From: a virus
Taxonomy: Duplodnaviria > Caudoviricetes
Length of the DNA stretch: 64,000 nucleotides
Virus record (IMG/VR): IMGVR_UViG_3300029288_000057
Span: 32,001-96,000 of that record
Reading direction: 5' to 3' (one strand)
Positions 9,385-51,907 of the stretch are shown here, piece by piece (within the stretch, counting starts at the first letter, position 1; each line of letters begins with the position of its first letter). Both the position numbers and the translations under genes were made by a program. The notes under the pieces are model-generated. The model saw only the letters and a program-made list of their open reading frames with translations, had not been told where the DNA came from and made no database searches.

Positions 9385-9439
9385 TGTGTTTATTTTTTAA
9401 ATTCAAATATATAAAGCAAAGATTTTAAAAAGAGGGAAA

Positions 9440-9736
9440 TTAATCCACTGTGGCTCCAAGTTCATTAATCAAATCAAGAGCTCTATTTATATCTTCAAAG
9501 ATTTCTTCGATGCTATCCCCGTAGCTCACTCCATTAAGGAAAAATTCTGTCTCGACTCCATTTTTCTTGCCGATATATTTCACCCCCATAATAAAATCTG
9601 AGCAATTAGAATATACCACTTCATCTTTATCGGACTTTACAAGAGCTTCGGCATTGCGTACTTCCACTACAGGATGTAGTTGTTTTCCACATTTGTCCTG
9701 GATTGTTTCACCGCAATAGACTGTTATTTTTTTCAT
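9440..9736 (-). CDS. Hypothetical protein
   Basis: ORF; stop abuts element. Confidence 0.75.
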   Translation of the reverse strand: MKKITVYCGETIQDKCGKQLHPVVEVRNAEALVKSDKDEVVYSNCSDFIMGVKYIGKKNGVETEFFLNGVSYGDSIEEIFEDINRALDLINELGATVD

Positions 9737-9839
9737 GATTATTTAATTTAAGTTTATAAAAAACCCCAAAGCCATACACTGGGAAGATGGAGTTGGGGGT
9801 TGGCGTAATATTTAGATTATGTCAAACTTTATACTATAT

Positions 9840-9867
9840 TATACGTATTTTTTTAAAAAAGGTTCCA
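9840..9867 (-). promoter_or_regulatory. Class II promoter TGGAAC-N16-CGTATA
   Basis: + strand tatacg-N16-gttcca. Confidence 0.65.
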
Positions 9868-9876
9868 ATAAAAAAC

Positions 9877-10012
9877 AAAAAACCCCCTCAAGTGGGGGTT
9901 TTAAGGCTGAGCCAGCGGAATAAGAATGGTTGTTCACTGATTTATTGGTAGCCACTCCAATCATATCTCATCCATTTTTTTCAGAACGGAACTATTCCGC
10001 CTCCCAGCTCGT
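9877..10012 (-). ncRNA. Candidate small RNA
   Basis: Class II promoter upstream; closing stem GCGGAATA/TATTCCGC; terminator CCCCCACTTGAGGGGG plus U-run; no plausible ORF. Confidence 0.5.
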
Positions 10013-10020
10013 GACTTATT

Positions 10021-10049
10021 TATACGGATAAGAGAAAGGAAAGGTTACA
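10021..10049 (-). promoter_or_regulatory. Class II promoter TGTAAC-N17-CGTATA
   Basis: + strand tatacg-N17-gttaca. Confidence 0.65.
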
Positions 10050-10057
10050 TATAAATT

Positions 10058-10146
10058 CAAAGAGCCCCTCAAGTGGGGCTCTAAGAGATTCAGCCTGCTG
10101 GAAAATTCCACGGCGCACATGTAGCTCGCCAGCATCTAATCTGTGA
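10058..10146 (-). ncRNA. Candidate small RNA
   Basis: Class II promoter upstream; stems AGATT/AATCT and TGCTGG/CCAGCA; terminator GAGCCCCACTTGAGGGGCTC. Confidence 0.5.
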
Positions 10147-10153
10147 ACTAGGT

Positions 10154-10182
10154 TATACGGATTTCTGTGCAAAAGAGTTGCA
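10154..10182 (-). promoter_or_regulatory. Class II promoter TGCAAC-N17-CGTATA
   Basis: + strand tatacg-N17-gttgca. Confidence 0.6.
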
Positions 10183-10342
10183 AAAAATCCCAGAATAAAA
10201 TTCACTCTGGGGTTTCCTGGTCAATAACAAATTAAAAAAATGAATATACAAATATACGATAAAAAATGATAGGGTGGTAGTTTTTTTAAAAAATAAACCC
10301 CAGAAAAAAATCTTCTGGGGGCAGGCCTTCGCAGCTGGTCAC

Positions 10343-10936
10343 CTATTTTTGTTTTCTTTTATTAATTTCGTCTCTGATTTCCGCAGCTTTTTCAAATTCA
10401 TCTTTATCCAGGGAGTTATTAAGAGCTACATTTAATTCTTCTAAAGAGAGTCTAGACAAATCAGTTTGTTTTTTATGCCATTCTTTTAAATCAAAACTTT
10501 TTTCCCATTGGGGAGATTTAAAGGTTTTGATTATAGAGTCCAGGTTATCGGCGAACATGGGGAATTTCTTTTTAATTTCTTCGATTTCTTCTGGGGTTGT
10601 ATCCTGGGTAATATTTATAAGGGTTGAGAACTCATCAGAATTATTTATAGCAATTGGTTTGTTTTTTTGGGGAGAGGTTCCTGATAATAAGTTGGGGAGA
10701 GATTCCACAAAGTTTGCCAGGGCTGTTATAACTTCCTGGTTAACATAAATGATTCTAATTCCCAAATAAATAACAACCCCCAGCGACAATAGAACAACTC
10801 CATTAAATATGGGGAGAGCTGTAAAAAATGAGGCTACAATTATTATGAGGCCTGCGATTGTTAAACCTAGTGCGAGAAGCCCGCAGAAGATTCCTGTCAT
10901 GAAGTCAAAAATATAGTTTGGGTTTTTTCTTTCCAT
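10343..10936 (-). CDS. Membrane protein with C-terminal UVR (UvrB/C) motif
   Basis: Two hydrophobic helices; L..SLDKDEFEKAAEIRDEI. Confidence 0.7.
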   Translation of the reverse strand: MERKNPNYIFDFMTGIFCGLLALGLTIAGLIIIVASFFTALPIFNGVVLLSLGVVIYLGIRIIYVNQEVITALANFVESLPNLLSGTSPQKNKPIAINNSDEFSTLINITQDTTPEEIEEIKKKFPMFADNLDSIIKTFKSPQWEKSFDLKEWHKKQTDLSRLSLEELNVALNNSLDKDEFEKAAEIRDEINKRKQK

Positions 10937-10959
10937 GGGGTAAATATAGTAAAATTAAA

Positions 10960-11205
10960 TTAACTTTCCAAGAAATCTTCATAAATATTTTCCAATTTAA
11001 GCATAATTTCTGGGGAGAAGTCTTCTGCGAAAAGGGGAATAATGTTGAGTAGTTCTTTTATGGCTGTTTCGTATTTATTTTTACTTTTATCTCTTTTTGT
11101 TATGGAGTCCAGGGAGACGAGTTCCTCATGGAGTTGGGGGTAATCTTCGTCATAACAGATTGAGAGCATTTCTTTAAATACTTCTCTGGCGTTTTTATCT
11201 GGCAT
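10960..11205 (-). CDS. Hypothetical protein
   Basis: ORF. Confidence 0.7.
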   Translation of the reverse strand: MPDKNAREVFKEMLSICYDEDYPQLHEELVSLDSITKRDKSKNKYETAIKELLNIIPLFAEDFSPEIMLKLENIYEDFLES

Positions 11206-11255
11206 ATATTTTAAAAGTTTATTTTCTTTTAAATATGCCGAAAAAATTTAGAAAT

Positions 11256-11525
11256 TTATATTTCGTCTCTATGGTAGTATGAACCGAATGCTACAACAAA
11301 AGCAAACAGTCCCATTACTCTTAGACTTAAGTGTTCTGCGGGGTTAAATATGTGAATTGTGCTTATAAAAATGGAGGAATCCAGAAATAAAACATAAGCA
11401 AGTGATGTTATTGCTGCAATGATTAAGCAGGCAGCAATTGTTATTAGGATAAAGTATACAATTCCCCCCAGGATTACTCCAAAGAATGAGCCACCAAAAT
11501 CAAAGAATTTTACTAATTTTTTCAT
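11256..11525 (-). CDS. Membrane protein
   Basis: Hydrophobic ORF in operon. Confidence 0.7.
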   Translation of the reverse strand: MKKLVKFFDFGGSFFGVILGGIVYFILITIAACLIIAAITSLAYVLFLDSSIFISTIHIFNPAEHLSLRVMGLFAFVVAFGSYYHRDEI

Positions 11526-11527
11526 GA

Positions 11528-11815
11528 TTATTTTTTTTGTTTTGTTTGATAAGCCGTTCTTCGAGCTTCATTTTTCTTTGGTGTGCCGTCGGCTTTTAAT
11601 TCAGGACCTTCGTATATACAAGAAGGAAGACTTGTATTGAAATCATATTCATAACCAATATTTTCCACTCTGATGGAGCCGATGTGGTCTGTAAATATGT
11701 CTCCTTCTTTTACTGTGTTGTTCGAGTTGGCATATTCTCTGGCCAAGGCATTCTTTTTCTTTATAAATTCCTTTCCCAACTCCTCAAGCCTACTTTTATA
11801 TTCTTCTATTTCCAT
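11528..11815 (-). CDS. Hypothetical protein
   Basis: ORF in operon. Confidence 0.75.
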   Translation of the reverse strand: MEIEEYKSRLEELGKEFIKKKNALAREYANSNNTVKEGDIFTDHIGSIRVENIGYEYDFNTSLPSCIYEGPELKADGTPKKNEARRTAYQTKQKK

Positions 11816-11817
11816 GG

Positions 11818-12126
11818 TTATACAAGTTTTGATTCATCATAATCTTCAAAAGAAATTGTGGCCTCGCATTTCTGTATTTTCCCGTTTTTGTAATATTCAA
11901 TCCAGATGTCTCCCGATTCTTCTCCTTCTCCACTCAGTTTAAATAGAACATTGGGGTGTTTCTTAGAATATTTTCTCATATCTTTTTCATGTTCATACCA
12001 TTTAATGGAGTCATCAAAGCAATTACTATACCCAGCTCCTGTTGCTTCGCTTATTTCTTTAGCGTAATCTGTAACAAAATCATTGCCTTCAATGATTTCT
12101 AATTTGTGATGTGTGTAGTATCCCAT
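11818..12126 (-). CDS. Hypothetical phage protein (MGY..KWY..GEGEE..D.W type)
   Basis: ORF in operon. Confidence 0.75.
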   Translation of the reverse strand: MGYYTHHKLEIIEGNDFVTDYAKEISEATGAGYSNCFDDSIKWYEHEKDMRKYSKKHPNVLFKLSGEGEESGDIWIEYYKNGKIQKCEATISFEDYDESKLV

Positions 12127-12138
12127 AATTAATTTATT

Positions 12139-13047
12139 TTAAAGATTATATTCTTCAATTTTTTTCTGTATAACTTTAATACAGCTGATGGTTGTATCCA
12201 ACCTGTTCAGGTTTGCCTCCATGATGAGGGAGATTTGCTGATTCAGGTCTTTTTGGAACTCTTTATATTGGGGAGACTTTCTATCCAGTGATTTCATAAA
12301 GTTGAGAGCTGCTTCGAGAATGAAGTCTTCCAAATCTTTTTCCTGTTTAATATTCTGGTATTGTTCAGCTGTATAGAATTCGAGGGATTTTTCTCCGAAC
12401 ACGTAGAAAAGAGTTTGGTCTATAGAACCTTTTCTGTTTTTTGACCAAGAAAGGGTTCTTGTATTTTTCCCCTTATCAAAAATCATTTCCAGGTGGGCAT
12501 CGAAGAGGTGTTCGATGGTATTCTTTCCCTCAAACGAACCGTCTTTATTAACGTGGCCGATAACAATCAGCACGGCGTTATTTTTATCTGTCCAAGCCCG
12601 CAGGTTCTGAATCAGGTTAAATGCTGCGGTATCTGCAGGAACATCAATAAAATCTTCTTTCAGGAGAATCTGCAGAGAATCGATAATGACAATGGATGGT
12701 TTCATATCATCCAGTTCTCTCATATAATCCTCGATGGAAGCGCACATGCTTCTGTCTACAATAAATGCATTGTGGTGGAGGATTTTATAGCGCTCCATTT
12801 GCATGACCACGCTTGAGTTTGTCATTTCACGGGAATAGAGAGAAGTTTTAATGTTTTCGAAGAATTTCTGCAGCACCACAGAGAATGTGGTTTTTCCTGC
12901 TCCAGGGGTACCTGTCAGGAATATTGCGCTTCCCCTCACGAATCCGCCCACTCCACTTATAAACTGGTCGAGAGTATCGTCTCCTGTTTTCAGGGCTTCC
13001 TCTGCCGAGTGGTCTATTTTTACATCCGAATAATTTATGCTTTTCAT
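12139..13047 (-). CDS. radA: RadA/Sms-like RecA-superfamily ATPase lacking the Zn finger and Lon-like domain
   Basis: Walker A GTPGAGKT, Walker B IIDSLQ, IGHVNKDG..G...EHLFDA, KNR motif. Confidence 0.8.
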   Translation of the reverse strand: MKSINYSDVKIDHSAEEALKTGDDTLDQFISGVGGFVRGSAIFLTGTPGAGKTTFSVVLQKFFENIKTSLYSREMTNSSVVMQMERYKILHHNAFIVDRSMCASIEDYMRELDDMKPSIVIIDSLQILLKEDFIDVPADTAAFNLIQNLRAWTDKNNAVLIVIGHVNKDGSFEGKNTIEHLFDAHLEMIFDKGKNTRTLSWSKNRKGSIDQTLFYVFGEKSLEFYTAEQYQNIKQEKDLEDFILEAALNFMKSLDRKSPQYKEFQKDLNQQISLIMEANLNRLDTTISCIKVIQKKIEEYNL

Positions 13048-13119
13048 TTTTTACCTACCTTTCATCGCTCGCACCTGATTTAAATATATAAAGAAGTTTG
13101 GTTAAAAAAGAGGGAACTT

Positions 13120-13404
13120 TTACCAATTTTCAAATCTGATTTTATAAACTCCTTTTGGAATCTCAGAAACGACGATTTCAAAACCCGTCATACCATCTTC
13201 AAAAATTTGGTGTTTTGGAATATCAACCGTCAATTTTTCTTTTAGAAGATATTTTTCTGGGTACTTGCTACCGAAATATTCAGCGGTTTCTTTTGGCATT
13301 TCTTTTACGCTTGCTTCTGCACAAGCGATTAATACTTTTGCGTGCTTTTTATAAATTGGGTCATCTTCGGACACCATACCTATAACGCGTGTTGACATAC
13401 TCAT
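13120..13404 (-). CDS. Hypothetical protein
   Basis: Array cassette ORF. Confidence 0.75.
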   Translation of the reverse strand: MSMSTRVIGMVSEDDPIYKKHAKVLIACAEASVKEMPKETAEYFGSKYPEKYLLKEKLTVDIPKHQIFEDGMTGFEIVVSEIPKGVYKIRFENW

Positions 13405-13683
13405 AATAATTGTTTTTTAGAATTAATTTCTTCTTCAATTTCGCTTTTGTCTCTACGGACATTTCTTTTGGAAACTTTCTTGTAGATTTTATCTTTCTTC
13501 CGTCCCCTCAGCTCACCATGTTTCTTGTAAGTTTTATTGCCCATTGTCTTTATTTAAATACATAAAGAGAATTCTAAAAAAAGAGGGAACCCCTAATCAT
13601 CCTCATCATCCCCATCCCCATCTAATAATACAATGAGGAATATTGGAATCCAGATGCACATAAACAATAAGAAATCTTCCATC

Positions 13684-13887
13684 TTATTCCCCATCCCCCG
13701 TATAAAAATTAATATCCACCCTGTCTGAGATTGAGTCATCAATCATCTCGATTGGCACCAATTCGAAGGTTTCGTCTTCTGGGGTTGTGATGTATCCAAA
13801 GACAGGCCTGGTTTTGTTCTTTAATTTCATGAGCTCACCAATGAGGTCTTGAACTGTCTCGATTGTTTTAATTTTTGGTGCTGCCAT
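13684..13887 (-). CDS. Hypothetical protein
   Basis: After class II promoter. Confidence 0.7.
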   Translation of the reverse strand: MAAPKIKTIETVQDLIGELMKLKNKTRPVFGYITTPEDETFELVPIEMIDDSISDRVDINFYTGDGE

Positions 13888-13913
13888 TTTGCGTTTTTTT
13901 AGTTATAATATAT

Positions 13914-13941
13914 TATACGCAAATGGGGGTTAAATGTTACA
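13914..13941 (-). promoter_or_regulatory. Class II promoter TGTAAC-N16-CGTATA
   Basis: Upstream of 13684..13887. Confidence 0.7.
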
Positions 13942-13969
13942 AAAAAGTTAAAAATAGCAGTGTAATATA

Positions 13970-14449
13970 TTAAACCTCATAAACCTCTGTTATTTTATAA
14001 AACCCCTTATATTCATTGAGGTCAAATTGTGTATAAAATGCCATTGATTTAAATCCAGTAACACTATTTGGTGGTGGAGAGTTTGCAATTACTTGCAACA
14101 TATTTCCAGGGGAATTGTAATCAATTTTCATTAATTCTTCGCCTGGTTCATAAGGTTTTCCATTGGAGTCTGTGTTTATAAGTTCATTACGGAATGAGGA
14201 GTATTTGGGGTCATTATCCAAAACAAGGTCTCCATCCCCAGTTTCCAAGTATTTCTTGCGAAAAAAAATTTCAAATTTCGCCTGTTCAAGGGTATCTGTC
14301 ATACAGATTAATGTCCAATCCTTGATTTTATCAATTGCTGGATTGAAATACACTGCATATTTAGGTTTAAGTTCAGTTACATCATAATCTCTCTTAGCAT
14401 ATTTCTGCAAGAGATATTGTTTTTTCTGTTGGGGAGTTAGAGCTGTCAT
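13970..14449 (-). CDS. Hypothetical protein
   Basis: After TATTTATA. Confidence 0.75.
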   Translation of the reverse strand: MTALTPQQKKQYLLQKYAKRDYDVTELKPKYAVYFNPAIDKIKDWTLICMTDTLEQAKFEIFFRKKYLETGDGDLVLDNDPKYSSFRNELINTDSNGKPYEPGEELMKIDYNSPGNMLQVIANSPPPNSVTGFKSMAFYTQFDLNEYKGFYKITEVYEV

Positions 14450-14508
14450 AAAATAAAAAATTCCTTATAAATAAATATAAGGAATTTTCTAAGAATTATC
14501 AAAAATAT

Positions 14509-14865
14509 TTAGGATGTTTTTTTAGAATCTTCATATCCCGCCTCATAAGCTTTATTTAAATAATCCCATTTTAAGGTTTCAAGAGTCATCTTCTCAGCTA
14601 AATCACTGCTATTTACATCACCTATTCCAAGTGTTTCTTTACACCAATCTGTAAAACTTTCAAGTTTTCTTTCCTCAACAGCCTCTCTATCTTGTTTCAG
14701 AGACTTGCTGAGTTCAGCAATTAGAGTTCGATAATTCGAGGATTTTTCTTTAAGTCTCGAATAATCAGGATTTGAGGGGCAGTTAGATGGAAGTTTTTCA
14801 ATTTCTATCAAGACTGTTTTAAGTCTCCTCTCGTAATCTTCGAGTAATAATTTTGTATTTTTCAT
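14509..14865 (-). CDS. Hypothetical protein
   Basis: ORF in sigma operon. Confidence 0.75.
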   Translation of the reverse strand: MKNTKLLLEDYERRLKTVLIEIEKLPSNCPSNPDYSRLKEKSSNYRTLIAELSKSLKQDREAVEERKLESFTDWCKETLGIGDVNSSDLAEKMTLETLKWDYLNKAYEAGYEDSKKTS

Positions 14866-14876
14866 TTTGTTATTTT

Positions 14877-15137
14877 TTAGATTAATTTTTCAGGCTTACC
14901 TCTGAACTCTTTTGAAGCATAAACACATGGTTCAGTTGGAACGATTCCGTCCATTGCTCTTCCCCAACATCCTTTGTGATAATAGTTCTTTATTATTGAG
15001 GGAGACATGTATGTTCCGAGGGCTTTGTTAATGAGTTCAACTGCTTGTTTCATTGAGTAGGCAGCAACATAAACGCTCCCATACTTATAATCCCCCGACC
15101 ACACGGTGCCGTTCCAAATCTTCAATTGCTTTCCCAT
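14877..15137 (-). CDS. Hypothetical protein
   Basis: ORF in sigma operon. Confidence 0.75.
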   Translation of the reverse strand: MGKQLKIWNGTVWSGDYKYGSVYVAAYSMKQAVELINKALGTYMSPSIIKNYYHKGCWGRAMDGIVPTEPCVYASKEFRGKPEKLI

Positions 15138-15138
15138 G

Positions 15139-15810
15139 TTATGCTTCCTCCAGTTCAGCGTTTTCTTTTACGCTCTTCTTTTTGTTATTTACGGGAAGAG
15201 CGATATCTGCTTTGACAAACTCCTCTCTTAAGATTTGTTTAGCTCTGAATAAGAAAGCTTTGACAGTCCCAATGGGTTTACCAGTTTCTTGACTGATTTC
15301 TTCGTAAGACATTCCGCCAAAGAATCTCATCTTTATGACTTCCGCCAATTCTTTATTTTCCATTGCATTGATGATATTGTTTATTCTTCTGTTCTTTTCG
15401 ACGGTCAGCATTTTGTCTTCGGGAGTTCCGTCCGCATCAGCGACTTCAAATTCAACGGTGTGATTTTCGTCATCGGTGATTGCCAAATCAGAGATAAGCA
15501 AACAGTCATCCTTTTTCTTTCTCAAATTGTCAATAAAGATGTGTTGGGTTAATTTAAATAACCACGTACTGAATGCAGAGACTTCCTCATTGTATTTATC
15601 CAAGTTATTATTCATCTTCACAAAAGCTTCGAGAACAAGTTCTTTCGCAGTCTCCTCATCTCTTCCGAGACTCCTGAAATGGAACAACATGGAATCGTGA
15701 TACTTTTTGTAGATAGCACTGAATGCCTCTTCGGATTTTCTTCCTGTTTTTGCTTTGATTGCCTCAACCAATTCTAAATCAGCCTTTGCACTTTTGCTCA
15801 TTTCTTTCAT
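15139..15810 (-). CDS. ECF-type RNA polymerase sigma-70 factor
   Basis: Region 2 (AF..IY..Y..A.ELV.EAF.K..FSTWL.K...IDNLRK) and region 4 HTH (GMSYEEIS...G.PIGTVK..L.RAK..LR). Confidence 0.92.
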   Translation of the reverse strand: MKEMSKSAKADLELVEAIKAKTGRKSEEAFSAIYKKYHDSMLFHFRSLGRDEETAKELVLEAFVKMNNNLDKYNEEVSAFSTWLFKLTQHIFIDNLRKKKDDCLLISDLAITDDENHTVEFEVADADGTPEDKMLTVEKNRRINNIINAMENKELAEVIKMRFFGGMSYEEISQETGKPIGTVKAFLFRAKQILREEFVKADIALPVNNKKKSVKENAELEEA

Positions 15811-15837
15811 CTCTCTTTGTTTTTTTAATTATTCAAA

Positions 15838-15867
15838 TATATAAAGTCTTCGTTTTAAAAAAGAGGG
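15838..15867 (-). promoter_or_regulatory. Class I element upstream of the ECF sigma gene
   Basis: tatataaagtcttcgttttaaaaaagaggg, about 28 nt before the ATG at 15810. Confidence 0.8.
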
Positions 15868-15874
15868 AACCCCG

Positions 15875-16492
15875 CTACTGCAGCAATGATTTTAACATCA
15901 ACTTAAATTCTTCCAACGAGCCGTTGAATCTTGAATTTAACCTGATTTCGTCAAGCATGATATCTTTCAAAACTTTGAGTTGTGCATCTTGGGCATTCTC
16001 TTTTGGGTAGGTTTTTTCAGGAAGCGGGATACATTTATTGATTGAGTAATCCACAATTAGACGTTCTCCGTCAACTACATTGTTAACAATGTTAATTTCA
16101 CCATGGTCACCAAATTCTTCACCTTCATAATCAACCACACCGTTCAGAACGTATCCTCTGGGGGCAAGAACTTTTGAGATAATATATTTAATCCACGGAA
16201 TATATTCACTAAATTTTTCTTCTTTATCCCACTCAATTCCCATTTTGTCTTTGGTTGGTCTCCACTGACACCAGAGACTAGGTTGAGTTGACGGTGGACA
16301 ATTTCCGTCGACAACGTCTTCAGAAAGACCATTGCTACCATTAACATAAAATTCTCCTTCTACTCCATACAAATGATGTACATTTCTTTTCATTCTGCGA
16401 GTTGTGCTGAGCTTTTTCAAAAACTCAAAAGTGTTTTCATCCAGTTCTTTGTTGAGTCCAAATTGTCCTCGAAATTCTATGTTGTATCCCAT
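15875..16492 (-). CDS. Hypothetical phage protein (MGY..QP.LWCQW..GEE..D type)
   Basis: Array cassette ORF. Confidence 0.8.
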   Translation of the reverse strand: MGYNIEFRGQFGLNKELDENTFEFLKKLSTTRRMKRNVHHLYGVEGEFYVNGSNGLSEDVVDGNCPPSTQPSLWCQWRPTKDKMGIEWDKEEKFSEYIPWIKYIISKVLAPRGYVLNGVVDYEGEEFGDHGEINIVNNVVDGERLIVDYSINKCIPLPEKTYPKENAQDAQLKVLKDIMLDEIRLNSRFNGSLEEFKLMLKSLLQ

Positions 16493-17616: not shown

Positions 17617-17622
17617 ATTTTG

Positions 17623-44341: not shown

Positions 44342-45301
44342 TTACTGATAAGCCACATCATCATCAAAAATTTCAAGCTCCAATTCTTCTCTTGCCGTCC
44401 TTGCTTGTGCTTGCGTCAATCTTTTGCCGCTGTTCGGGTGCAAATGCTTCATGTCAGCGAAAATATGAATCCATCCCTTTGCTTCAATTGTAGGCACATC
44501 TGATTCTAAAATCGTATGCACATATTCAATATGATTAGTATATTTACAATAATGCATTGTTCCATCGGGGGAGAGCCAACCCATCTTTAAACTTTTATCT
44601 GTGGAATCTTTTAACAAGTCCTGATAGTGTGTTGTCTTTGCTCTCTGTTCTATTGTATTAACCACATCCCAACTTTTCGCCTTAACAGTTTCGAGAATCT
44701 TATCTTTTGACCCAAGTATACACCAACTAAAGCCATTTGATGCTAAAAGTATTTGTGAGCCGTCTGCGTGCTTTCCTCCAAGCTCTTTCCAAGAAATTTG
44801 AAAATCCGTTTCGCTTGCACCAATGAATTGTTTTACCAATACAAGCGTTTTCATATCAATAGCTTTTTTTTCATTTACAATTATTCTGTAGCAAAATTCA
44901 CCATCTGAACCAACCCATTTGCCTATACGTTTCATCTCAAAATTCTTTGGTATGCTGCCCAAATCCCTTTCAATGTTTTTAGGCTCGGAAACATATAAAA
45001 CTGTTTCAAACCTCTCAAGGTTATTTTCAATCGTTTCTTCGGGAAAACCACTGTGACAAGGACGAATGAAAACGGGTAAACAACTATCGGGGAATTTAAA
45101 TTTGGTGCAATCCAAAGGTAATACCTTTGATAAGGTTTTACCTGCATCAGCTATGCCCCCTGGCAATATATCCAAACTGATTACTTTATCCATCAAAGAG
45201 CCAAGCAACCCCTCACCTGCCCCACAATCTACAACCACACGCCCTTTGGCTTCCTTTTTAATTATCGCTAAAAGTCCTTTGTCAATTTGACAGAATATCA
45301 T
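44342..45301 (-). CDS. Protein with N-terminal SAM-methyltransferase-like domain and C-terminal GWLSPDG..H domain
   Basis: VVVDCGAGEG motif I, ISLD. Confidence 0.65.
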   Translation of the reverse strand: MIFCQIDKGLLAIIKKEAKGRVVVDCGAGEGLLGSLMDKVISLDILPGGIADAGKTLSKVLPLDCTKFKFPDSCLPVFIRPCHSGFPEETIENNLERFETVLYVSEPKNIERDLGSIPKNFEMKRIGKWVGSDGEFCYRIIVNEKKAIDMKTLVLVKQFIGASETDFQISWKELGGKHADGSQILLASNGFSWCILGSKDKILETVKAKSWDVVNTIEQRAKTTHYQDLLKDSTDKSLKMGWLSPDGTMHYCKYTNHIEYVHTILESDVPTIEAKGWIHIFADMKHLHPNSGKRLTQAQARTAREELELEIFDDDVAYQ

Positions 45302-45578
45302 AGCAGTTTGGTTTTATTGGTTTATAAACATATAAAGGAATATGTTCAGGAAAGAGGGGATAAACCACATAGAATTGTTTCTTGTGGGGTGCGTAATTAT
45401 TTTCTGCGTTTAAATATTGCCTGAAATATATATATAAGTCCTTGCATTATGTAATAAACTGAAACGAGAAATATTACTCCATATCCTAATAATCTACCAG
45501 AACTCTGTTGGTTTAAAAATTCAAATAGTGTTTCCATTGTAATTTGTTTTTATTGATTGAATATATAAAGCAAAAGTT

Positions 45579-45881
45579 TTAGGAAAGAAGGGATTTGTCT
45601 TTTCTTACACACCACGTCTGAGTGCAATTTGAAGTATGAAGATATTCAGGACGCCCTTTGCAGGAGATATAATTAGGAAATGTTTCTACATCTATTCTTT
45701 TAGCATTCAGTAAATTGTTTCCCACATTTTCGGGAGTTACCGAATATTCATACGTATTACCCCCCATCTTATCCCACGTAACAATACAATCATAAAAAGC
45801 TCTTTCGCTCTCAAATAATTGTTTTCTTATTAATTTGCCTTTTGCACTCGTTAATGTATATTCAAATTCAAATGCGTACAT
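45579..45881 (-). CDS. Hypothetical protein
   Basis: Start moved to MYAFE. Confidence 0.7.
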   Translation of the reverse strand: MYAFEFEYTLTSAKGKLIRKQLFESERAFYDCIVTWDKMGGNTYEYSVTPENVGNNLLNAKRIDVETFPNYISCKGRPEYLHTSNCTQTWCVRKDKSLLS

Positions 45882-45900
45882 GGTTGCGTTTTTTATTGGT

Positions 45901-46143
45901 TTATAAAGATACTTTAATTTTTGTTGACAGTTCATCCAGTTCCTTTTTTGTTTCGTCGTCTGATACACTTCTTACTCTCTCAATCATTCGACCAATTTGG
46001 AACGCTTCTATTGGCGTTAAGTCTTTTGGTGTTTCTACAGTTTTCTTTGCTAATTTTCTCCATGTGCTTTCCTGTAGACCGTTTAGTGGTCTTGATGAAA
46101 AATTCTCATTCGCAAATTCTAATAATAATTTTGGGAAGTTCAT
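45901..46143 (-). CDS. Hypothetical protein
   Basis: Array ORF. Confidence 0.7.
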   Translation of the reverse strand: MNFPKLLLEFANENFSSRPLNGLQESTWRKLAKKTVETPKDLTPIEAFQIGRMIERVRSVSDDETKKELDELSTKIKVSL

Positions 46144-46204
46144 AGTGCAAAGTTTTATTGATTGAATATATAAAGCGAATTTATTTGGAAAGAGGGGAGA
46201 GTTT

Positions 46205-46408
46205 TTAATCCAAAAACATTAATTCCTTTTGAATGCTTTCAGCTTGCCTGCTGTATTTTTTGTACATTTCTAAACACGCATGTCTGCCGTATGTATTGTT
46301 TTTGTCTTCACCAAAAAAAAGACGTGCGCAGAACCTTCTGCTGCTTATTACACTGTTTAATTGGTATTTCAGGTATATTCTTTTGAGAAATTTCTTGAGC
46401 CTTTTCAT
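46205..46408 (-). CDS. Hypothetical protein
   Basis: Single-gene cassette. Confidence 0.7.
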   Translation of the reverse strand: MKRLKKFLKRIYLKYQLNSVISSRRFCARLFFGEDKNNTYGRHACLEMYKKYSRQAESIQKELMFLD

Positions 46409-46466
46409 GGTATTTGGTTTTTATTGGTCGCTAAATATATAAAGCAAACAAAAATGAAAAGAGGGA

Positions 46467-46655
46467 TTAATTAAAAGAATGATAAATGTACTTTGCCCCA
46501 CGCCATGTTTTCGGAAGGGGTTGTATTCGTTCTGCGTTTACTTCCAGCCCAAACTTTTGATTCTTAAAATGTACCCTTTTGGAATTAATCATGTCAATAA
46601 AACAAAGTTTGGTTCCAGAATGAGTAATAACTTTTACATATTCACCGAGTTGCAT
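46467..46655 (-). CDS. Hypothetical protein
   Basis: Array ORF. Confidence 0.7.
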   Translation of the reverse strand: MQLGEYVKVITHSGTKLCFIDMINSKRVHFKNQKFGLEVNAERIQPLPKTWRGAKYIYHSFN

Positions 46656-46660
46656 AGCTC

Positions 46661-46906
46661 TTAGTTTTTAGGGAATATTGTATTAAAATCAAAAGTCTCA
46701 AGTATGGGTGCGTTTCCTGGCATTTTACCAGTTCTTCTGTTTATCCTTTGAGCATAAATAGTGTCGCCTTCAAAACCAAAAACCTTGTACAATATTTCAT
46801 ATTCTCTGCCAAAGCATTTTTTAGGAGAAGGAATAAGAAAAAAACGACCTGTTTCAATCCCTTTGTGGTTTGATTCAAATTTTATGTCTGAGAGTTTCCT
46901 GCACAT
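46661..46906 (-). CDS. Hypothetical protein
   Basis: Array ORF. Confidence 0.7.
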   Translation of the reverse strand: MCRKLSDIKFESNHKGIETGRFFLIPSPKKCFGREYEILYKVFGFEGDTIYAQRINRRTGKMPGNAPILETFDFNTIFPKN

Positions 46907-46963
46907 GGTAATTGTTTTTTTGGTTAAATATATAAAGCAAAAGGAAATGGAAAGAAGGAGTGT

Positions 46964-47302
46964 TTACTCCCTGTATATAGCCTCATTGAGAAAGATTTCA
47001 AAGTCTTTAATAGCTATATCAACGTTTTCACAGCTATGAAAATTGTTCTTATGGTTTGGGTGAGATAACCCACAGAATTTTTTATGCTTCATGAATACAC
47101 TATATAAATTTTCTTGATGGTCAGGATTGTATAGGGTAACTTTTAACGGTTCAATTGCACCAGCGAATGAACTTTCATCTAATGGAATTTCATATTCACA
47201 GGCTTGTGAATTAAGACTGTGAACCTTAGTCCCAGCATGATTGAGTATGATTTTCTGTATTTCTGAAACGAATTTTATTCTGTCTTTTTTTGTATTTTTC
47301 AT
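46964..47302 (-). CDS. Hypothetical protein
   Basis: Start moved to MKNTK. Confidence 0.75.
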   Translation of the reverse strand: MKNTKKDRIKFVSEIQKIILNHAGTKVHSLNSQACEYEIPLDESSFAGAIEPLKVTLYNPDHQENLYSVFMKHKKFCGLSHPNHKNNFHSCENVDIAIKDFEIFLNEAIYRE

Positions 47303-47363
47303 AGTTTGTGGTTTTGGCTTGTTAAATATATAAAGCAAAATATTAAAAGAAGAAGGAATCGGT

Positions 47364-47603
47364 TTAATTCCACCCCCTCAGCTTTTGAACGTATTGGATA
47401 AACATAAACCTGCAATCATTTTCAAATTCTTCGTAGGTCATTGGGGCAAACATCTCACTATTGAACTTACCTGCGATAATGAATTGCATCATATTTCTTT
47501 TAACATCGTAACGGTAAGTCGTCTCTGAACCAACTACGTGATAATAGTAAACATCCTCTGTACGAGACTTAATAAGCATTGGTTGTTTTATAGACTTTTT
47601 CAT
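47364..47603 (-). CDS. Hypothetical protein
   Basis: Start moved to MKKSI. Confidence 0.7.
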   Translation of the reverse strand: MKKSIKQPMLIKSRTEDVYYYHVVGSETTYRYDVKRNMMQFIIAGKFNSEMFAPMTYEEFENDCRFMFIQYVQKLRGWN

Positions 47604-47832
47604 ACCGATTGTTTGTAAGTTTATAAAGCCATTTTTAAATAAAGAGGGAAGACGGGGTACCAAACCCGTCTTCCAAAACCAACTAAACCTAAACATGAAA
47701 AAACCAACTTCGCTAACTAATATTTTTATAACATGTGTATTTTCTTTTTATCATGCCAGAAACTTTTATCTGGCTCTTCACCTCTGGTTCTGGAGTTATA
47801 AAGAAACCTCTCCAGAAAAGAGGGAGAATCAC

Positions 47833-48210
47833 TCAACCCGTCGTTTCAATAACTTCACAGAAGTTTGCAGTATATAAGGCGGAATTAAGCAAAAGACTTT
47901 CATAAAACGACAGTGCTTTTTCTCTATCCTCAAAGTTTTGAAAGTAGTCTGTTAAATCTTTATCCCGCCCCTCAATAACATAAGCCACACAATATTTAAT
48001 ATGAAATGTATTCTTTTTTTTAAAAAACTTATCTATAAAAGTGTTAATTCCATAAGCTGCAAAAAGAATAAGCAATATAGAAACACAAAAAGAAATAAAC
48101 CCCGACGTTACGTCCCACACTGCACCCCACCCACCACAAATAGTAATGACAATTGCAACGGCAAGTATAATTAAAATAAGTCTTTTGGATATTAAAATTT
48201 CTTTTTTCAT
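47833..48210 (-). CDS. Membrane protein
   Basis: Two TM helices. Confidence 0.75.
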   Translation of the reverse strand: MKKEILISKRLILIILAVAIVITICGGWGAVWDVTSGFISFCVSILLILFAAYGINTFIDKFFKKKNTFHIKYCVAYVIEGRDKDLTDYFQNFEDREKALSFYESLLLNSALYTANFCEVIETTG

Positions 48211-48261
48211 AGTGGTTAGTTTTTATTGGTTTATAAATGTATAAAAGAAAGGAAGGAAAGA

Positions 48262-48468
48262 TTATTTTGACTCGTTTAAATCAATTATCAAATGGGTTTT
48301 AGTTTCACTAATATTAAACGTTCTCCAATCTGAATTTTGCTTTTTCGTATTGCAAACGAATATTGTTGTTTTCCTGACATCATGCTCAAATATTGCAAAG
48401 CATTTTCCGTCTTGTATCGCATAATCTGAATAAAATGTTCCTTGAGGTTTTTTAATTCTGCGTTTCAT
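48262..48468 (-). CDS. Hypothetical protein
   Basis: Array ORF. Confidence 0.7.
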   Translation of the reverse strand: MKRRIKKPQGTFYSDYAIQDGKCFAIFEHDVRKTTIFVCNTKKQNSDWRTFNISETKTHLIIDLNESK

Positions 48469-48530
48469 TTTGGTTTGTTTTGGTTTAACAAATATATAAA
48501 GCGAATTTATTTTGAAAGAAGGGAAGTTTT

Positions 48531-48809
48531 TTAAACATTAATAGTTGTTGTTATTGTTGTAATAGTTTGAATCTGGAATTGAGAATTTTCGTAAGTTTTT
48601 TCCCCTTCATAAACACTTTCTCTTAATTCCTGTATATGTTCAAGTGCTTGTTCATATCCATAAATATCAAGAGTTGTCTTTCCTCCTTCGGGGTTAAACT
48701 TTTTCCATCTTTCATCAAATTTTGAATATCCTTCTGGTGAAAAATAACCATTCATATCTTTAGTTTTTACAACTAAATATGTATTTGTTTCTGTTGTTGT
48801 GTCTTTCAT
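48531..48809 (-). CDS. Hypothetical protein
   Basis: Single-gene cassette. Confidence 0.75.
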   Translation of the reverse strand: MKDTTTETNTYLVVKTKDMNGYFSPEGYSKFDERWKKFNPEGGKTTLDIYGYEQALEHIQELRESVYEGEKTYENSQFQIQTITTITTTINV

Positions 48810-48877
48810 GGTTTCTATATTTGAATATATAAAGTAAATTGTTTCAAAAAGAAGGGATTTATTATTGACTTTTGGTT

Positions 48878-49183
48878 TTATAATTTACTTGCAATAGATT
48901 TTAGCAAATTATGGAACTCTTCAAAGTCTTCTAATGACTTCCGTATTGTAAACACATTACAGTAATCTTCTGCCTGCCTATAGGTTGTAATTTGTTCATC
49001 AACATTAAAATCATTCACATAAGAAACAAATTCCTCTTTGGTAAATGGGCGTAAAAGAATAATCATATCCACCCCGCCAGAAGTCCATATTTCTAATTCG
49101 GCAACTTGTGTTTTTTCTTCTTTGAACAAAGATACGTTAAACCCGTTGTCTTCAAAAAATTTGGTTAATTGTTTTATTTTCAT
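48878..49183 (-). CDS. Hypothetical protein downstream of tRNA-like element
   Basis: Start moved to MKIKQ. Confidence 0.75.
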   Translation of the reverse strand: MKIKQLTKFFEDNGFNVSLFKEEKTQVAELEIWTSGGVDMIILLRPFTKEEFVSYVNDFNVDEQITTYRQAEDYCNVFTIRKSLEDFEEFHNLLKSIASKL

Positions 49184-49205
49184 GTTTGACAGTTTTTTGT
49201 CTTTT

Positions 49206-49291
49206 GCCCCACGAACAGGACTCGAACCTGTCACAGTATTATTTCCTGCGTTGTTCACAACATTACATTGTGTGCCTGACAAGACGTGGAG
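49206..49291 (-). ncRNA. Degenerate tRNA-like element (possibly His-GTG derived)
   Basis: Acceptor CTCCACG/CGTGGGG, T arm ACAGG-TTCGAGT-CCTGT, D-like TTGT/ACAA; loop TTGTGAA on a mismatched stem; directly after class I element 49298-49326. Confidence 0.55.
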
Positions 49292-49316
49292 TGTAAGTAT
49301 ATAAAGCAAATTTATC

Positions 49317-49544
49317 TTAAAGAAGGAGACTTTTTTCACCAGCCAGGATTTCTTTCATTTCTTTAGAGCTTACAAAGTCAGCTCCTCTTGAAAATGGTTC
49401 GTCAAATGCTTTGATTTCTTTTTTTAATTTCCTTGCTCCACATTTGCATTCAAAGATTATTTCTCTTGTGTGAAAAGAAATATACATACATGCTATTGGT
49501 TTGCTGAAATTATGTATATGCAGCTTTTTAAATAATTTTTTCAT
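49317..49544 (-). CDS. Hypothetical protein
   Basis: Array ORF. Confidence 0.7.
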   Translation of the reverse strand: MKKLFKKLHIHNFSKPIACMYISFHTREIIFECKCGARKLKKEIKAFDEPFSRGADFVSSKEMKEILAGEKSLLL

Positions 49545-49576
49545 TTGTTATAGGTTTATTGGTTAAATATATAAAA

Positions 49577-49984
49577 TTACCGAAAACTTGTCCTGTATGG
49601 GTAGCTTGGCTGCGTTTTAGAGATTAATATTCCATACCTCCAAACTTCTTTTGTGTTTTGTTCATACCACTTGTTTATTATATAATGTCTTGCTTCAATA
49701 TGAGGGGGCAATTTATCAATATAAGAATTAACATTCAATTTATTAAATTCCTGAAACGTTATTTTGCTCCTTTCATCAACAAATTTTTCAGCAGCCTTCA
49801 ATGGACTTGGATAATTGCATTGTTTCAAAAAATCATAAACAGCTTGCAAAGATTTACCTTCAATATAAGCGTGCCTGTAAAAATCATCAATCCATGAATT
49901 AAAAATAAATTTAGGGCAGTTCAAATAGTTTCTTGAATAATATACATAGTCAATAAACTTTTCAGTGGGGTTTAAAAGTTCCAT
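49577..49984 (-). CDS. Hypothetical protein
   Basis: Array ORF. Confidence 0.75.
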   Translation of the reverse strand: MELLNPTEKFIDYVYYSRNYLNCPKFIFNSWIDDFYRHAYIEGKSLQAVYDFLKQCNYPSPLKAAEKFVDERSKITFQEFNKLNVNSYIDKLPPHIEARHYIINKWYEQNTKEVWRYGILISKTQPSYPYRTSFR

Positions 49985-50317
49985 TTGTTTTAATTTTTAT
50001 TGGTTAAGTATATAAAGCAAAATTCCCTCCAAGAAGGAAACATTTGCTATTTTTTTACTTTGCCCTTACTCCTCTTTTACGTGCAAAAGTGGTATTCGGA
50101 TTGCCTTTTTCCAGTCTGATTGCTTCAGCAGTTTTGCGAGCAAATTTACGTGCTGTCCTGAGAATAGATTTGTCGTTCATGTTGTTTTATTTTTATGGGT
50201 TATGATTATATAAAGCAAAATTCCCTCAAAAGAGGGAGGTTTATAAAATAATTATAAATAAGTCTTTGTTTTTTTAAATTTCTTTTTTATATTTATAATA
50301 AAGTTCTTTAAAATATT

Positions 50318-50494
50318 GCTGTGGTGAATAGGGACATTCGTTGCAGGATAAACAAAAAAACGGTGAGGCGTTGACAATAGTCAAGTCTGTGAAACGTTAA
50401 ATTCCACTATTAATTTGGATAAGTTCACGGGTTAATAACTAAAGTAAATTTTTTTAGAAAATGACCAAAAAGCCCCTGACTTTGGGGCTTTTTT
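50318..50494 (+). ncRNA. Candidate ncRNA with boxA-like leader
   Basis: TATTTATA at 50290, GTTCTTTAAAA at 50303, hairpins TTGAC/GTCAA and GTGAA/TTCAC, terminator 50467-50494; no ORF. Confidence 0.4.
50467..50494. terminator. Bidirectional intrinsic terminator
   Basis: AAAAAGCCCC-tgacttt-GGGGCTTTTT. Confidence 0.75.
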
Positions 50495-50654
50495 ATTATT
50501 ATAATGTAAGATTTAAAATGTTTTTTACAGTTAGAAGAAAGTCGGCGCTCGTATCATATCTATTCAGTATTTAAGGTAAATCAATAAGGCGTTAATTAAC
50601 TCAATCTTTTTGCAGGGAAGGACTTTTATTTCTCAGCATAGCTTTTAAGGCTTT

Positions 50655-50945
50655 TTAGATGATTAATAGATTTGTTTTCGTTGTCAGCTCAATATTTAAA
50701 GCAACCGCATTGATTAAGCTTTTTATGGTTACAACTTTTTGTGCTTCGTTGAATTGTGAAAAATCTTTATCCACAATAATCTCAGAAAGATTCTGAATGG
50801 TCTCTAAAAGGTCAGCCTGTGCAGGCGAAATAGGTACTGTCTTTTCTCCCTGTGGAACAACTGAAATTTGCTCTAATGGTGCAGACAAGTTTTCGGAGGG
50901 GTTATCATCATAACTCTTGAACCCGATTTTGTTTCTAGTTTTCAT
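50655..50945 (-). CDS. Hypothetical protein
   Basis: Start moved to MKTRN. Confidence 0.7.
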   Translation of the reverse strand: MKTRNKIGFKSYDDNPSENLSAPLEQISVVPQGEKTVPISPAQADLLETIQNLSEIIVDKDFSQFNEAQKVVTIKSLINAVALNIELTTKTNLLII

Positions 50946-51240
50946 GGCTCGTAGTTTTAATTGGTTTGCGGATATATAAAGCAAATAAAAACAAAAAGAG
51001 GGAGAGACAAACAGCCCCAAAAATACCCCAATCCCGCACCTTGTGAGTGCAGGTCAACAAACTTTCGTTCTCTGAGAAAAGGACTGAACCTCTTAACGCT
51101 TAATCATAATTGTTTTCCTTTCATTGTTTCTTATTCTGTTATGTATATAAAGAAAATCATTAGCAAAGAGGGAAACTTTTTTGAGTGAAAAAAAAAGAGA
51201 GTGCGACTTGTACCCCCTTTTTACCTATTTTTTTTAACCC

Positions 51241-51798
51241 TTATTCAATTTCAATCGTTTCGCCGCTTACTTTAACTTTGCTTGTAATGTTAGCAATTTT
51301 ATAATAGCGAATTTTTGATGTTTTAAGGTCAAGCACCTTTTCAATATGCTTTTTTGCAAGTGTCAAAGGACGGCTTTTTACTTCTTTGTAAATGCCTGCC
51401 TTGATAACATTTTTGCGTACCACCGTACCCGAAATTAATACACTGCCTGTTTCCTTGCAATATTTCAGCGTACCCTTATCGTTTAAAGAAATGTAAGCTT
51501 CTTTTTGTCCATTTGAACGTACTTCGTTCGGCTTAACAAGGGACTGCAATTTTTCAGTAAGTGCCTGCTCAATTAGTGAATGACCAAAATTGTCATTTAC
51601 TAAATCATTTAACTTTGCACCCTTTAAAGTTTCAATGTCGGCTTCTTTCATATTGCCGTAACTTGCACCTACGTTAATTAAAACGTCTGCAATTTCACTG
51701 TTTTCGGATGAATCTGAACAGTAACCCTTAATTGCAACAAAGGAAACACCGTTAAAGTTGAATCCCTCAATCAGTTTTAGTAATGTTATATATTCCAT
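51241..51798 (-). CDS. Hypothetical phage protein, first gene of the array
   Basis: Overlapping class I and class II promoters upstream. Confidence 0.85.
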   Translation of the reverse strand: MEYITLLKLIEGFNFNGVSFVAIKGYCSDSSENSEIADVLINVGASYGNMKEADIETLKGAKLNDLVNDNFGHSLIEQALTEKLQSLVKPNEVRSNGQKEAYISLNDKGTLKYCKETGSVLISGTVVRKNVIKAGIYKEVKSRPLTLAKKHIEKVLDLKTSKIRYYKIANITSKVKVSGETIEIE

Positions 51799-51877
51799 TT
51801 TATTCGTGTTTTAATTAGTTTACGCATATATAAAGGAAAAAGTTACAAAAGAGGGACAAAAATTATCAACACCACCG

Positions 51878-51907
51878 CCCTCTTTTCATAACAAATATCT
51901 TTATATG
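51878..51907 (+). promoter_or_regulatory. Single inverted class I element driving 51930..52130
   Basis: CCCTCTTTTcataacaaatatCTTTATATG, then AACCAAAAAACCAAAC leader and ATG; divergent from the copy at 51827-51855. Confidence 0.8.

Follow-up and report, generated by a model that had tools for sequence, protein, structure and literature searches.

What does a short DNA element do when it stands 64 times in front of small, unrelated genes and is found nowhere else in the genome that carries it? The question is raised by a stretch of 64,000 nt, here called the window, which corresponds to bases 32001-96000 of one 290,886-bp viral contig of 33% GC (IMG/VR record IMGVR_UViG_3300029288_000057). The element is bipartite and has the form CC(C/T)TCTTT-N12/13-CTTTATAT. 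The array made of its copies extends over positions 9409-51906 of the window and consists of 63 elements on the minus strand, a divergent one on the plus strand, and about 95 small open reading frames (ORFs). Coordinates refer to the window, unless marked as genome positions.

The reading which we regard as probable, judging from sequence comparison, is that the array is the hyperplastic accessory-gene region of a T4-like jumbo phage, built of 64 composite regulatory cassettes of the early-promoter stem-loop (PeSL) type. The phage is a T4-like jumbo myovirus, since its genome encodes a Gp23 major capsid protein (8.7e-73) and a Gp20 portal protein (9.4e-71), along with tail sheath and baseplate wedge proteins. 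Its host would be of the Bacteroidota type: this fits the A-rich leaders of the array genes, which lack a Shine-Dalgarno sequence, and the canonical TTTG/TAnnTTTG promoters found elsewhere in the genome, where a perfect TAnnTTTG box precedes many genes of the replication region.

Organization of the array and anatomy of the element

A strict pattern, CC[CT]TCTTT-N9..14-CTTTATAT, has 43 matches on the minus strand of the window (9409..51855) and a single one on the plus strand (51878-51906), and a bipartite position weight matrix (PWM) was built from its matches. At thresholds of 14-18 the PWM detects 63 minus-strand sites and one plus-strand site in the whole genome. All 64 are located within genome positions 41-84 kb (9.4-51.9 kb of the window), none elsewhere in the 290,886 bp, and no site was detected in the shuffled genome. 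The box CCCTCTTT, taken alone, occurs 45 times on the minus strand, always inside the array interval, and once on the plus strand. An earlier note on this DNA had counted about 65 copies of the element and had described it as absent from the flanks; the scan of the full genome bears out both statements.

Elements are spaced by a median of 542 bp, and together they take up about 8% of an array. At the head of the array, the sole plus-strand element (51878-51906; ATG at 51930) diverges from the minus-strand element at 51828-51855 (PWM score 28.8), and the two boxes form an inverted repeat. Apart from the copies described individually below, the minus-strand elements of the upstream half, each given with its PWM score in parenthesis, are located at 50974-51002 (40.4), 50208-50236 (42.1), 50010-50037 (27.2), 48827-48855 (35.1), 48494-48522 (43.9), 47328-47356 (31.6), 46930-46958 (46.5), 46437-46465 (37.6), 45563-45591 (41.4), 45330-45358 (34.8), 44307-44335 (36.5), 43534-43562 (45.0), 42789-42817 (40.0), 42119-42147 (48.4), 41075-41103 (47.0), 40688-40716 (31.4), 40229-40256 (32.4), 39576-39604 (31.6), 38011-38038 (36.5), 37275-37303 (48.4), 36729-36757 (40.7), 35623-35651 (43.4), 34689-34717 (37.4), 34049-34077 (45.9), 33665-33693 (41.0), 33353-33380 (43.5), 33067-33095 (37.7), 32256-32284 (45.0) and 31518-31546 (33.6). 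They continue at 30824-30852 (32.5), 29920-29948 (44.7), 29058-29086 (40.3), 28531-28559 (46.4), 27948-27976, which is the weakest call (18.4), 26909-26937 (32.0), 26372-26400 (39.5), 23923-23951 (48.3), 23542-23570 (43.0) and 22239-22267 (35.5).

The array is interrupted only once, between 19955 and 22267, by a plus-strand gene resembling GIY-YIG homing endonucleases (20026-21054; Pfam GIY-YIG, 6.8e-08) and by three minus-strand tRNA genes, two of Glu type and one Met, called within 21067-21445. Beyond the gap, elements are found at 19927-19955 (38.9), 19149-19175 (25.0; degenerate box and 11-nt spacer), 18167-18195 (33.1), 13560-13587 (37.0), 13086-13114 (39.1) and, most downstream, 9409-9436 (36.8).

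Aligned copies give the extended consensus (A)ACTCT-CCCTCTTT-YY..AAA...TTTG-CTTTATAT-ATTYR..(A)TAACCAAAA..ATG, with a spacer between the two boxes of 13 nt in 48 copies and of 12 nt in 14. An ATG is found 13-38 nt (median 25) past CTTTATAT in 55 of the 63 minus-strand copies, and the stop codon of the upstream ORF lies at most 12 nt before the box in 38 of 63; for the eight stop codons previously quoted as examples of this arrangement, all verified, the distance is 1-5 nt. Forty units contain a single gene and 13 contain two, and eight elements have no ORF start within 40 nt. The 95 array ORFs include no paralogous pair at E<1e-6. The proposed repetition, head to tail, of units made of element, leader, ORF and stop, with unrelated cargo, is thereby upheld: these are self-contained units in one hypervariable region.

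ORF-less stretches of 100-300 nt, some of which end in strong terminators, follow the elements at 51145-51172 (35.9), 49299-49326 (31.2), 47796-47824 (26.2), 47621-47648 (21.5; a strong hairpin lies just upstream) and 19409-19437 (24.5), all five without an ORF start within 40 nt, and the element at 39780-39808 (33.7), whose unit of about 200 nt resembles the one at 327662 of a relative, G001. Units of this kind are candidates for small RNAs transcribed from the array promoter.

The earlier description of the element as bipartite stands, but it overlooked that about 41% of the CCCTCTTT boxes can also pair as the 3' arm of a putative terminator hairpin, with a U-tract behind it. Hairpins of -6 kcal/mol or lower, with the box as their 3' arm and a T-run behind it, are present in 26 of 63 copies, compared with 18% for random upstream sequence; in the relatives, the fraction of hairpin-bearing copies ranges from 25 to 53% (control 18%). 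The strongest hairpin, of -24.2 kcal/mol, belongs to the element at 38231-38258 (PWM score 35.2), and one of -18.5 kcal/mol to the element at 43959-43987 (40.7). Further hairpin-bearing elements are located at 31151-31178 (27.3), where the box is the degenerate TCTTCTTT, 30208-30236 (47.1), 28262-28290 (29.7), 24720-24748 (44.9), 22941-22968 (38.3) and 16547-16574 (39.6). An independent terminator scan of window positions 22-42 kb returned 40 terminator-like sites, many of them on elements, against 13.1 +/- 4.4 expected. The hairpins at unit boundaries are simple putative terminators made of a GC stem and a T-run. In G001, their 5' arms pair with the local box variant, AAAGTGGG with CCCACTTT and AAAGAGGG with CCCTCTTT. 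That 59% of the copies here lack a convincing hairpin weighs against a terminator role common to all elements. These copies, devoid of a 5' arm, retain the box at a constant distance from CTTTATAT, and the box must therefore also matter by itself.

As to the promoter, the geometry alone would allow CCTCTT to serve as -35 and TATATA as -10, with a spacer of 17 bp in 48 copies and of 16 bp in 14; again by geometry alone, the conserved (A)TAACCAAAA, about 7 nt past the -10-like hexamer, falls at the expected start position. Matches to an E. coli sigma-70-like promoter are not enriched (66, against 68.5 +/- 7.4 expected), and canonical Bacteroidota -33/-7 promoters are used elsewhere in the same genome, in agreement with the earlier judgement that the element is not a recognized host consensus. 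The element is best read as a composite of PeSL type, which would join the 3' arm of a terminator to a promoter of sigma-70-family geometry. In such a cassette the C-rich box and its T-run, CCCTCTTT(T)n, would close the intrinsic terminator of the preceding unit wherever an upstream G-rich arm is complementary. After a spacer of 12-13 nt, the invariant (TTTG)CTTTATAT(A) box would complete, together with the C-rich box, the sigma-70-family promoter geometry, and a short A-rich leader of about 25 nt, with no Shine-Dalgarno sequence, would lead to the ATG.

A T4 MotA-like reader was also considered, as TTTGCTTTA, contained in the element, resembles the MotA box of T4. It was rejected: no MotCF domain was found, and the G of the motif is unconserved (TTTCTTTATAT in a related lineage, G008).

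Relatives of the array and the reader of its promoter

Relatives were collected by a pattern scan and by capsid-protein searches of uncultured phages. G001 (372 kb, capsid protein 87% identical) carries 58-59 copies of the element in one 33-kb array. Most of its boxes read CCCACTTT and 12 read CCCTCTTT, with a nearly invariant AATTTGCTTTATATA part. An extended repeat of about 110-140 nt surrounds elements in three places of this genome. In the G008 lineage, represented by a 187-kb fragment, 32 copies with CCCCCTTT are packed into 20 kb; in a fourth lineage the form CCCCCTT(T/C)-N13-CTTGATAT is found in 33 of 33 copies; further metagenome contigs contain 8-30 copies each. The element is absent from the more distant relatives G002 and G003.

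Orthologous genes bear the box variant of the genome in which they reside, not one proper to their own gene family, and the copies within one genome therefore evolve in concert. A Fisher test gave no support to an origin of G001's minority CCCTC-type cassettes in CCCTC lineages (p = 0.72). Within the genome studied here, copies have exact runs of up to 32 nt in common (median best match 19 nt), and some are mosaics of two others: the element at 46168-46196 (PWM score 45.6) has the 5' half of the copy at 33693 and the 3' half of the copies at 45591 and 43562.

A further relative, G007 (IMGVR_UViG_3300020048_000023), encodes a homolog of a 153-aa array gene and has, in at least 12 copies, a repeated promoter of 50 nt that is distinct from the element. 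The latter is the canonical Bacteroidota promoter, with TTTG at -33, N20, and TAnnTTTG at -7; homologous arrays can therefore run on different promoter classes.

Four promoter-like classes were recognized in the genome under study: the canonical TTTG/TAnnTTTG class, a TATTTATA class located upstream of structural genes, a class resembling the promoters of extracytoplasmic function (ECF) sigma factors, and the array element. Structural genes at genome positions 96-288 kb follow (C/A)TATTTATA(A), the reverse complement of the T4 late-promoter word TATAAATA. A Pfam search of the genome for single-subunit and multisubunit RNA polymerases found none; for PF00940 the negative is weak, as its control matched nowhere.

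Two proteins of the sigma-70 family are encoded, and will be called sigma279 and sigma223 from their lengths in amino acids. The first (genome 289767-290606) is a primary-like sigma comprising regions 1.2, 2, 3 and 4, with SigA/RpoD as best solved relatives, and is 82-89% identical across the clade, in contigs of up to 540 kb. Its gene forms a two-gene operon (genome 289271-290606) with that of a 162-aa protein of no known function, and the operon keeps a canonical host-type promoter, TTTG...TATTTTTG, in three lineages. The second, sigma223, is of ECF type and is encoded within the array itself.

The distribution of sigma279 largely follows that of the element. It is present in three of the four element-bearing lineages, directly in this genome (G000) and in G001, and by sample co-occurrence in the fourth lineage. 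For the G008 lineage we only infer it: a GP88 protein of G008 type and a sigma279 homolog were each traced to a contig of 540,462 bp, probably one and the same. It was not found in the element-less relatives G003 and G007, and G002 has only paralogs of 37-40% identity. The DNA-binding regions of sigma279 (2 and 4.2) are invariant, save for residue 104 and a conservative V/I99 (region 2.4). Residue 104 is I in lineages with CTTTATAT, where the promoter has a T, and T in the lineage with CTTGATAT, where it has a G; the residue aligns with T440 of E. coli sigma-70, the -12 contact. When genome contigs were searched with sigma279, the matches were confined to distant Firmicutes sigmas, hit by chance peptide words, and carry no information on the host.

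Sigma279 is favored as the reader because the element differs from the host consensus that the phage employs in other places, because element and sigma279 co-occur, and because of the one covariation just described. In the proposed scheme the host primary sigma would not read the element; sigma279, itself made from a canonical host-type promoter, would do so. On present sequence evidence this proposal appears evenly balanced between right and wrong, and several points weigh against it. The covariation is a single event, in which the sigma is tied to its lineage by sample co-occurrence alone, and some of the fourth-lineage samples also contain a second related phage. Sigma223 co-occurs with the element equally well and always lies behind one, which would fit ECF autoregulation too. 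Finally, the copies of this genome show a partial likeness to the host -7 box (TAnnTT), and a host sigma could be the reader.

The last point leads to the alternative that survives best, though we think it unlikely: the cassette array would be as described, and its promoter would be an early promoter of ordinary kind but unusual strength, read directly by the host primary sigma, with sigma279 serving another class, such as the canonical TAnnTTTG promoters of replication genes, or taking over from the host sigma. The downstream box indeed continues as TATATT(C/T)(A/G), matching the TAnnTT of the Bacteroidota -7 box; the homologous array of G007, built on TTTG-N20-TAnnTTTG, indicates that such arrays can run on host sigma; and the PeSLs of T4, RB49 and KVP40 all use it (PMC2839356, PMC4122927). 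However, perfect TAnnTTTG boxes exist elsewhere in this genome, and a systematic departure from them in 64 copies looks deliberate. The -7-like resemblance is moreover lost in G001 and in the fourth lineage (TATACTCA and GATATAAG), where CTT(T/G)ATAT remains invariant, and the element co-occurs with two clade-specific phage sigmas.

Gene turnover, breakpoints and cargo

When the genome was compared with G001 in 10-kb bins, genes in common amounted to 4-33% in the array and to 65-100% in the core (median identity 65-79%); for the array as a whole, about 21% of the genes are shared with the nearest relative. The array genes in common with G001 are collinear. Among nine arrays compared, 216 of 261 gene families are singletons, and a megablast among all collected array contigs found no close pairs; nor did 12 kb and 18 kb of the window match phage records by megablast. 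A second hypervariable region (genome 1-40000) holds about 80 small plus-strand genes without the array element; it has about 9% of its genes in common with G001 and, over genome 0-40 kb, is as variable as the array in this comparison.

The earlier note proposed that the promoter doubles as a recombination handle. This genome itself yields no mappable breakpoint, for want of a recorded close relative: an exact look-up of its own GP88-family protein found none, and the best homolog is 78% identical. At the element preceding the gene of that protein (25567-25595; PWM score 35.2), DNA similarity to the relatives stops at the upstream edge of the box. Breakpoints were derived from near-identical strains of two sister lineages, one of G008 type and the fourth lineage.

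At a first junction (J1), a contig of assembly ERZ27254749 follows G008 through the box and the T-run, and then continues with a different spacer, leader and genes. At the second (J2), another contig of the same assembly shows 1.1 kb of foreign cassettes with their own element, followed by 99.99% identity to G008 over 16.6 kb, and this identity begins exactly at the first C of the box of J1. Taken together, J1 and J2 suggest that at least 1.6 kb was inserted, with the box as a 14-nt direct repeat on either side. At J3, in the fourth lineage, two independent assemblies equal a third one through the whole element and 9 further nt, and then carry other cargo. The junctions thus sit at three places, the T-run (J1), the 5' edge of the box (J2) and the leader (J3). 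A fourth junction (L253, coverage about 2) is located 125 nt past a box, inside an ORF. Of the four gene-content junctions, three hence lie within elements, whose share of the sequence is about 8% (binomial p of about 0.002); this gives the proposed handle direct support, in the sister lineages only. Further strain sets that were compared are collinear and gave no more junctions.

Neither a tyrosine recombinase (PF00589; the control was positive in 14 of 14 genomes) nor a serine recombinase (PF00239) has a match in the genome. The lack of a recombinase, together with the varied junction points, fits homologous, not site-specific, exchange. General homologous recombination would use the repeats, identical over up to 32 nt, as short stretches of homology to insert, delete and swap whole, expression-ready cassettes, a process that has been demonstrated for PeSLs; the same exchange between copies would keep the elements of one genome alike.

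Some observations weigh against such a role. At the greater divergence of the nine-array comparison, the adjacency of neighboring genes is kept in 11 of 129 cases with an element between them and in 7 of 59 cases without; the two do not differ, and much of the turnover therefore need not use the element. The breakpoints stem from sister lineages and not from this genome, and one of the four, L253, lies inside an ORF. J1 and J2 are on two separate contigs of one assembly, and look-ups of the joining sequences returned those contigs alone; repeats can also cause assembly breaks. Contigs of related phages, such as L285-L288, L262, L250 and others, frequently break off in the 200 nt or so that precede a cassette gene, which fits assembly breaks at repeats or strain heterogeneity.

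An improbable alternative follows from these points, namely that the elements are regulatory punctuation only, that turnover proceeds by illegitimate recombination, homing endonucleases or other means, and that the junctions are assembly breaks or coincidence. It can draw on the adjacency data, where loss across elements is no greater than within units, on the GIY-YIG gene in the array, and on the position of J1 and J2 near contig ends, which in several assemblies cluster just upstream of cassettes. Yet J3 falls within contigs, and two independent assemblies show it; on the two sides of J2 stand 1.1 kb of foreign, well-formed cassettes and 16.6 kb at 99.99% identity; and both the mosaic copies and the genome-wide homogenization of the box are hard to explain without exchange between copies.

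The genes so arranged are mostly of families without known function. Pfam matches were obtained for only about 8 of 90 ORFs of at least 45 aa, and include GP88, the ECF sigma, an AAA/DnaB-like ATPase, a ParB-like protein, an N6 DNA methyltransferase, HypA/zinc ribbons and a UVR motif; PHROGs matches are mostly to families without known function. No known anti-defence family was seen among the Pfam and PHROGs matches of the cargo, and the description of the latter as an anti-defence library is a guess.

The ECF sigma gene (sigma223, 223 aa; 15139-15810, minus strand; Pfam Sigma70_r2, r4_2 and ECF) is directly preceded by the element at 15839-15867 (PWM score 31.6). The arrays of G001 and G008 also contain its ortholog immediately after an element, and a sigma with regions r2 and r4_2 is encoded in the array of the fourth lineage; a sigma223 search in viral contigs found nothing. 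The genome also contains about 18 copies of the ECF-like class, (TG)AAAC-N16-CGTATAA(T/C), for example, on the minus strand of the window, at 8057, 8227, 9845, 13919 and 38583. Copies of AAC-N16-CGTATAA number 12 in G001 and 14 in G008 (controls 1 each), and 0 in G003 and G007. In 5 of 63 array elements CGTATAA is in register just downstream of CTTTATAT; the element consensus is without AAC at -35 and CGT at -10, the hallmarks of ECF promoters. The AAC-N16-CGTATAA class is probably the regulon of sigma223, to judge from these motifs. With this assignment, the candidate readers left for the array element are sigma279 and the host sigma.

That the element is instead the autoregulated promoter of sigma223, and the whole array an ECF regulon, seems to us quite improbable. 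The location of the gene directly behind an element in G000, G001 and G008 is what positive ECF autoregulation would produce, and the co-occurrence of sigma223 with the element in three lineages, with a sigma of the same domains in the array of the fourth, speaks for it as well. The element, however, lacks AAC and CGT, the separate (TG)AAAC-N16-CGTATAA class co-occurs with sigma223, and a sigma made only from its own promoter class needs another starter. In the scheme based on sigma279, the array would express the ECF sigma, which would read the AAC-N16-CGTATAA class as a third one, and the cascade would run from host sigma to sigma279, from there to the array including the ECF sigma, and finally to the ECF regulon. 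On the widest reading, a clade of T4-like megaphages of 290-540 kb would have private transcription through a phage sigma, in which dozens of non-host promoters fused to terminators serve as exchange patches, each lineage holds its roughly 60 copies in step with its own sigma, and an ECF class comes next; so complete a picture is less likely than not.

Some features of the surroundings complete the description. Just past the divergent element pair, a non-coding block at the head of the array (52131-52745) contains at least five copies of TTAGACCCCCT-like direct repeats, a 39-nt unit repeated three times, and paired TTTGTCAGG..CCTGAC palindromes; the block is a candidate origin or regulatory region. 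Upstream of the array the minus strand encodes an M16-family peptidase (53918-55048), a 270-aa protein with helix-turn-helix domains and a weak 'Recombinase' domain match but no catalytic domain (58630-59442), and a membrane protein of the cation-efflux (CDF) family (60617-61528). Farther away, a 939-aa protein adjoining the portal gene (genome 243347-246166) holds an intein with a LAGLIDADG endonuclease domain.

Comparison with known systems

The array was earlier likened to an integron, and this part of the proposal fails. Both have unrelated small genes arranged head to tail, a conserved boundary element and a high turnover of cassettes. The array differs in having no integrase and no attC-type site, in providing each cassette with its own promoter, and in the variable position of the junctions; it is not an integron. 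A true integron-like system, with a dedicated recombinase acting site-specifically at the element, is very improbable: head-to-tail cassettes with a conserved boundary and the weak 'Recombinase' match of the nearby 270-aa protein would speak for it, but the genome has neither a tyrosine recombinase nor the catalytic domain of a serine resolvase, the cassettes do not depend on one Pc promoter, and the junctions fall at three different positions of the element.

Phage sigma cascades are known from SPO1, where gp28 is followed by gp33/34, and from T4, with gp55; SPO1 also has a host-takeover module with repeated early promoters of host type. Like these phages, the one analyzed here encodes sigmas that would switch RNA polymerase to private promoters, and it has many small genes with a promoter each. 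It differs in that, as assigned from sequence, its first phage sigma would be primary-like (regions 1.2-4) and its second of ECF type. The (TG)AAAC-N16-CGTATAA class has the same boxes and spacing as the SigW-type ECF promoter of B. subtilis, TGAAAC-N16-CGTA; this class is not the array element, and would only be the likely output of the ECF sigma borne by the array.

If the assignment of sigma279 is true, the phage would provide a clean natural pair of orthogonal sigma and promoter in control of a swappable gene library, of use for understanding how huge phages gain accessory genes and as a source of parts for synthetic biology in Bacteroidota. The approximately 90 cargo genes, nearly all without known function, are candidates for host-takeover or counter-defence screens.

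The closest comparison is with the PeSL cassettes of T4-type phages, which had been set aside previously as sigma70-like and are the right one. A PeSL is a terminator stem-loop located just upstream of an early promoter; in the work on those of RB49 and phi1, PeSLs were found concentrated in hyperplastic regions and located at indel breakpoints, their formation of mini-circles was demonstrated by experiment, and RB49 was found to have 8 PeSLs in about 5 kb (Arbiol et al. 2010, PMC2839356). PeSLs were later extended to T4/PST and KVP40/nt-1, with A3-4G3-loop-C3T3-4 as stem-loop consensus in nt-1 (Comeau et al. 2014, PMC4122927). The phage described here is likewise of T4 type, with all 64 copies in 43 kb of a hyperplastic region of small ORFans. 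Its cassette, too, is a composite, in which a putative promoter, preceded directly by a putative terminator stem-loop in about 41% of copies, is followed by leader and ATG. The design AAAG(N)GGG-loop-CCC(N)CTTT corresponds to that of nt-1, the local density is similar, and chimeric copies occur. In the sister lineages, as in the known systems, the ends of indels and replacements lie within the cassette, at points that vary from the box to the ATG.

The differences concern promoter, size and sequence evolution. The promoter is neither sigma-70-like nor of the canonical host type, and may be read by a phage sigma. The array, with 64 copies over 43 kb, is far larger. The 3' arm of the terminator is present in all copies and the 5' arm in about 41%, and there is no Shine-Dalgarno part. 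The box variant is homogenized in each phage lineage. PeSLs are known from a handful of T4-type phages of coliphage, Yersinia and Vibrio origin, where the promoters are of host type. The same logic of terminator, promoter and cassette is met here in distant, uncultured T4-like megaphages of a Bacteroidota-type host, on a scale about ten times larger, with a promoter off the host consensus and a variant made uniform per lineage, and natural populations provide evidence, at the level of breakpoints, of cassettes as seams of gene exchange. Scale, non-host promoter and lineage-specific concerted evolution set the array apart.

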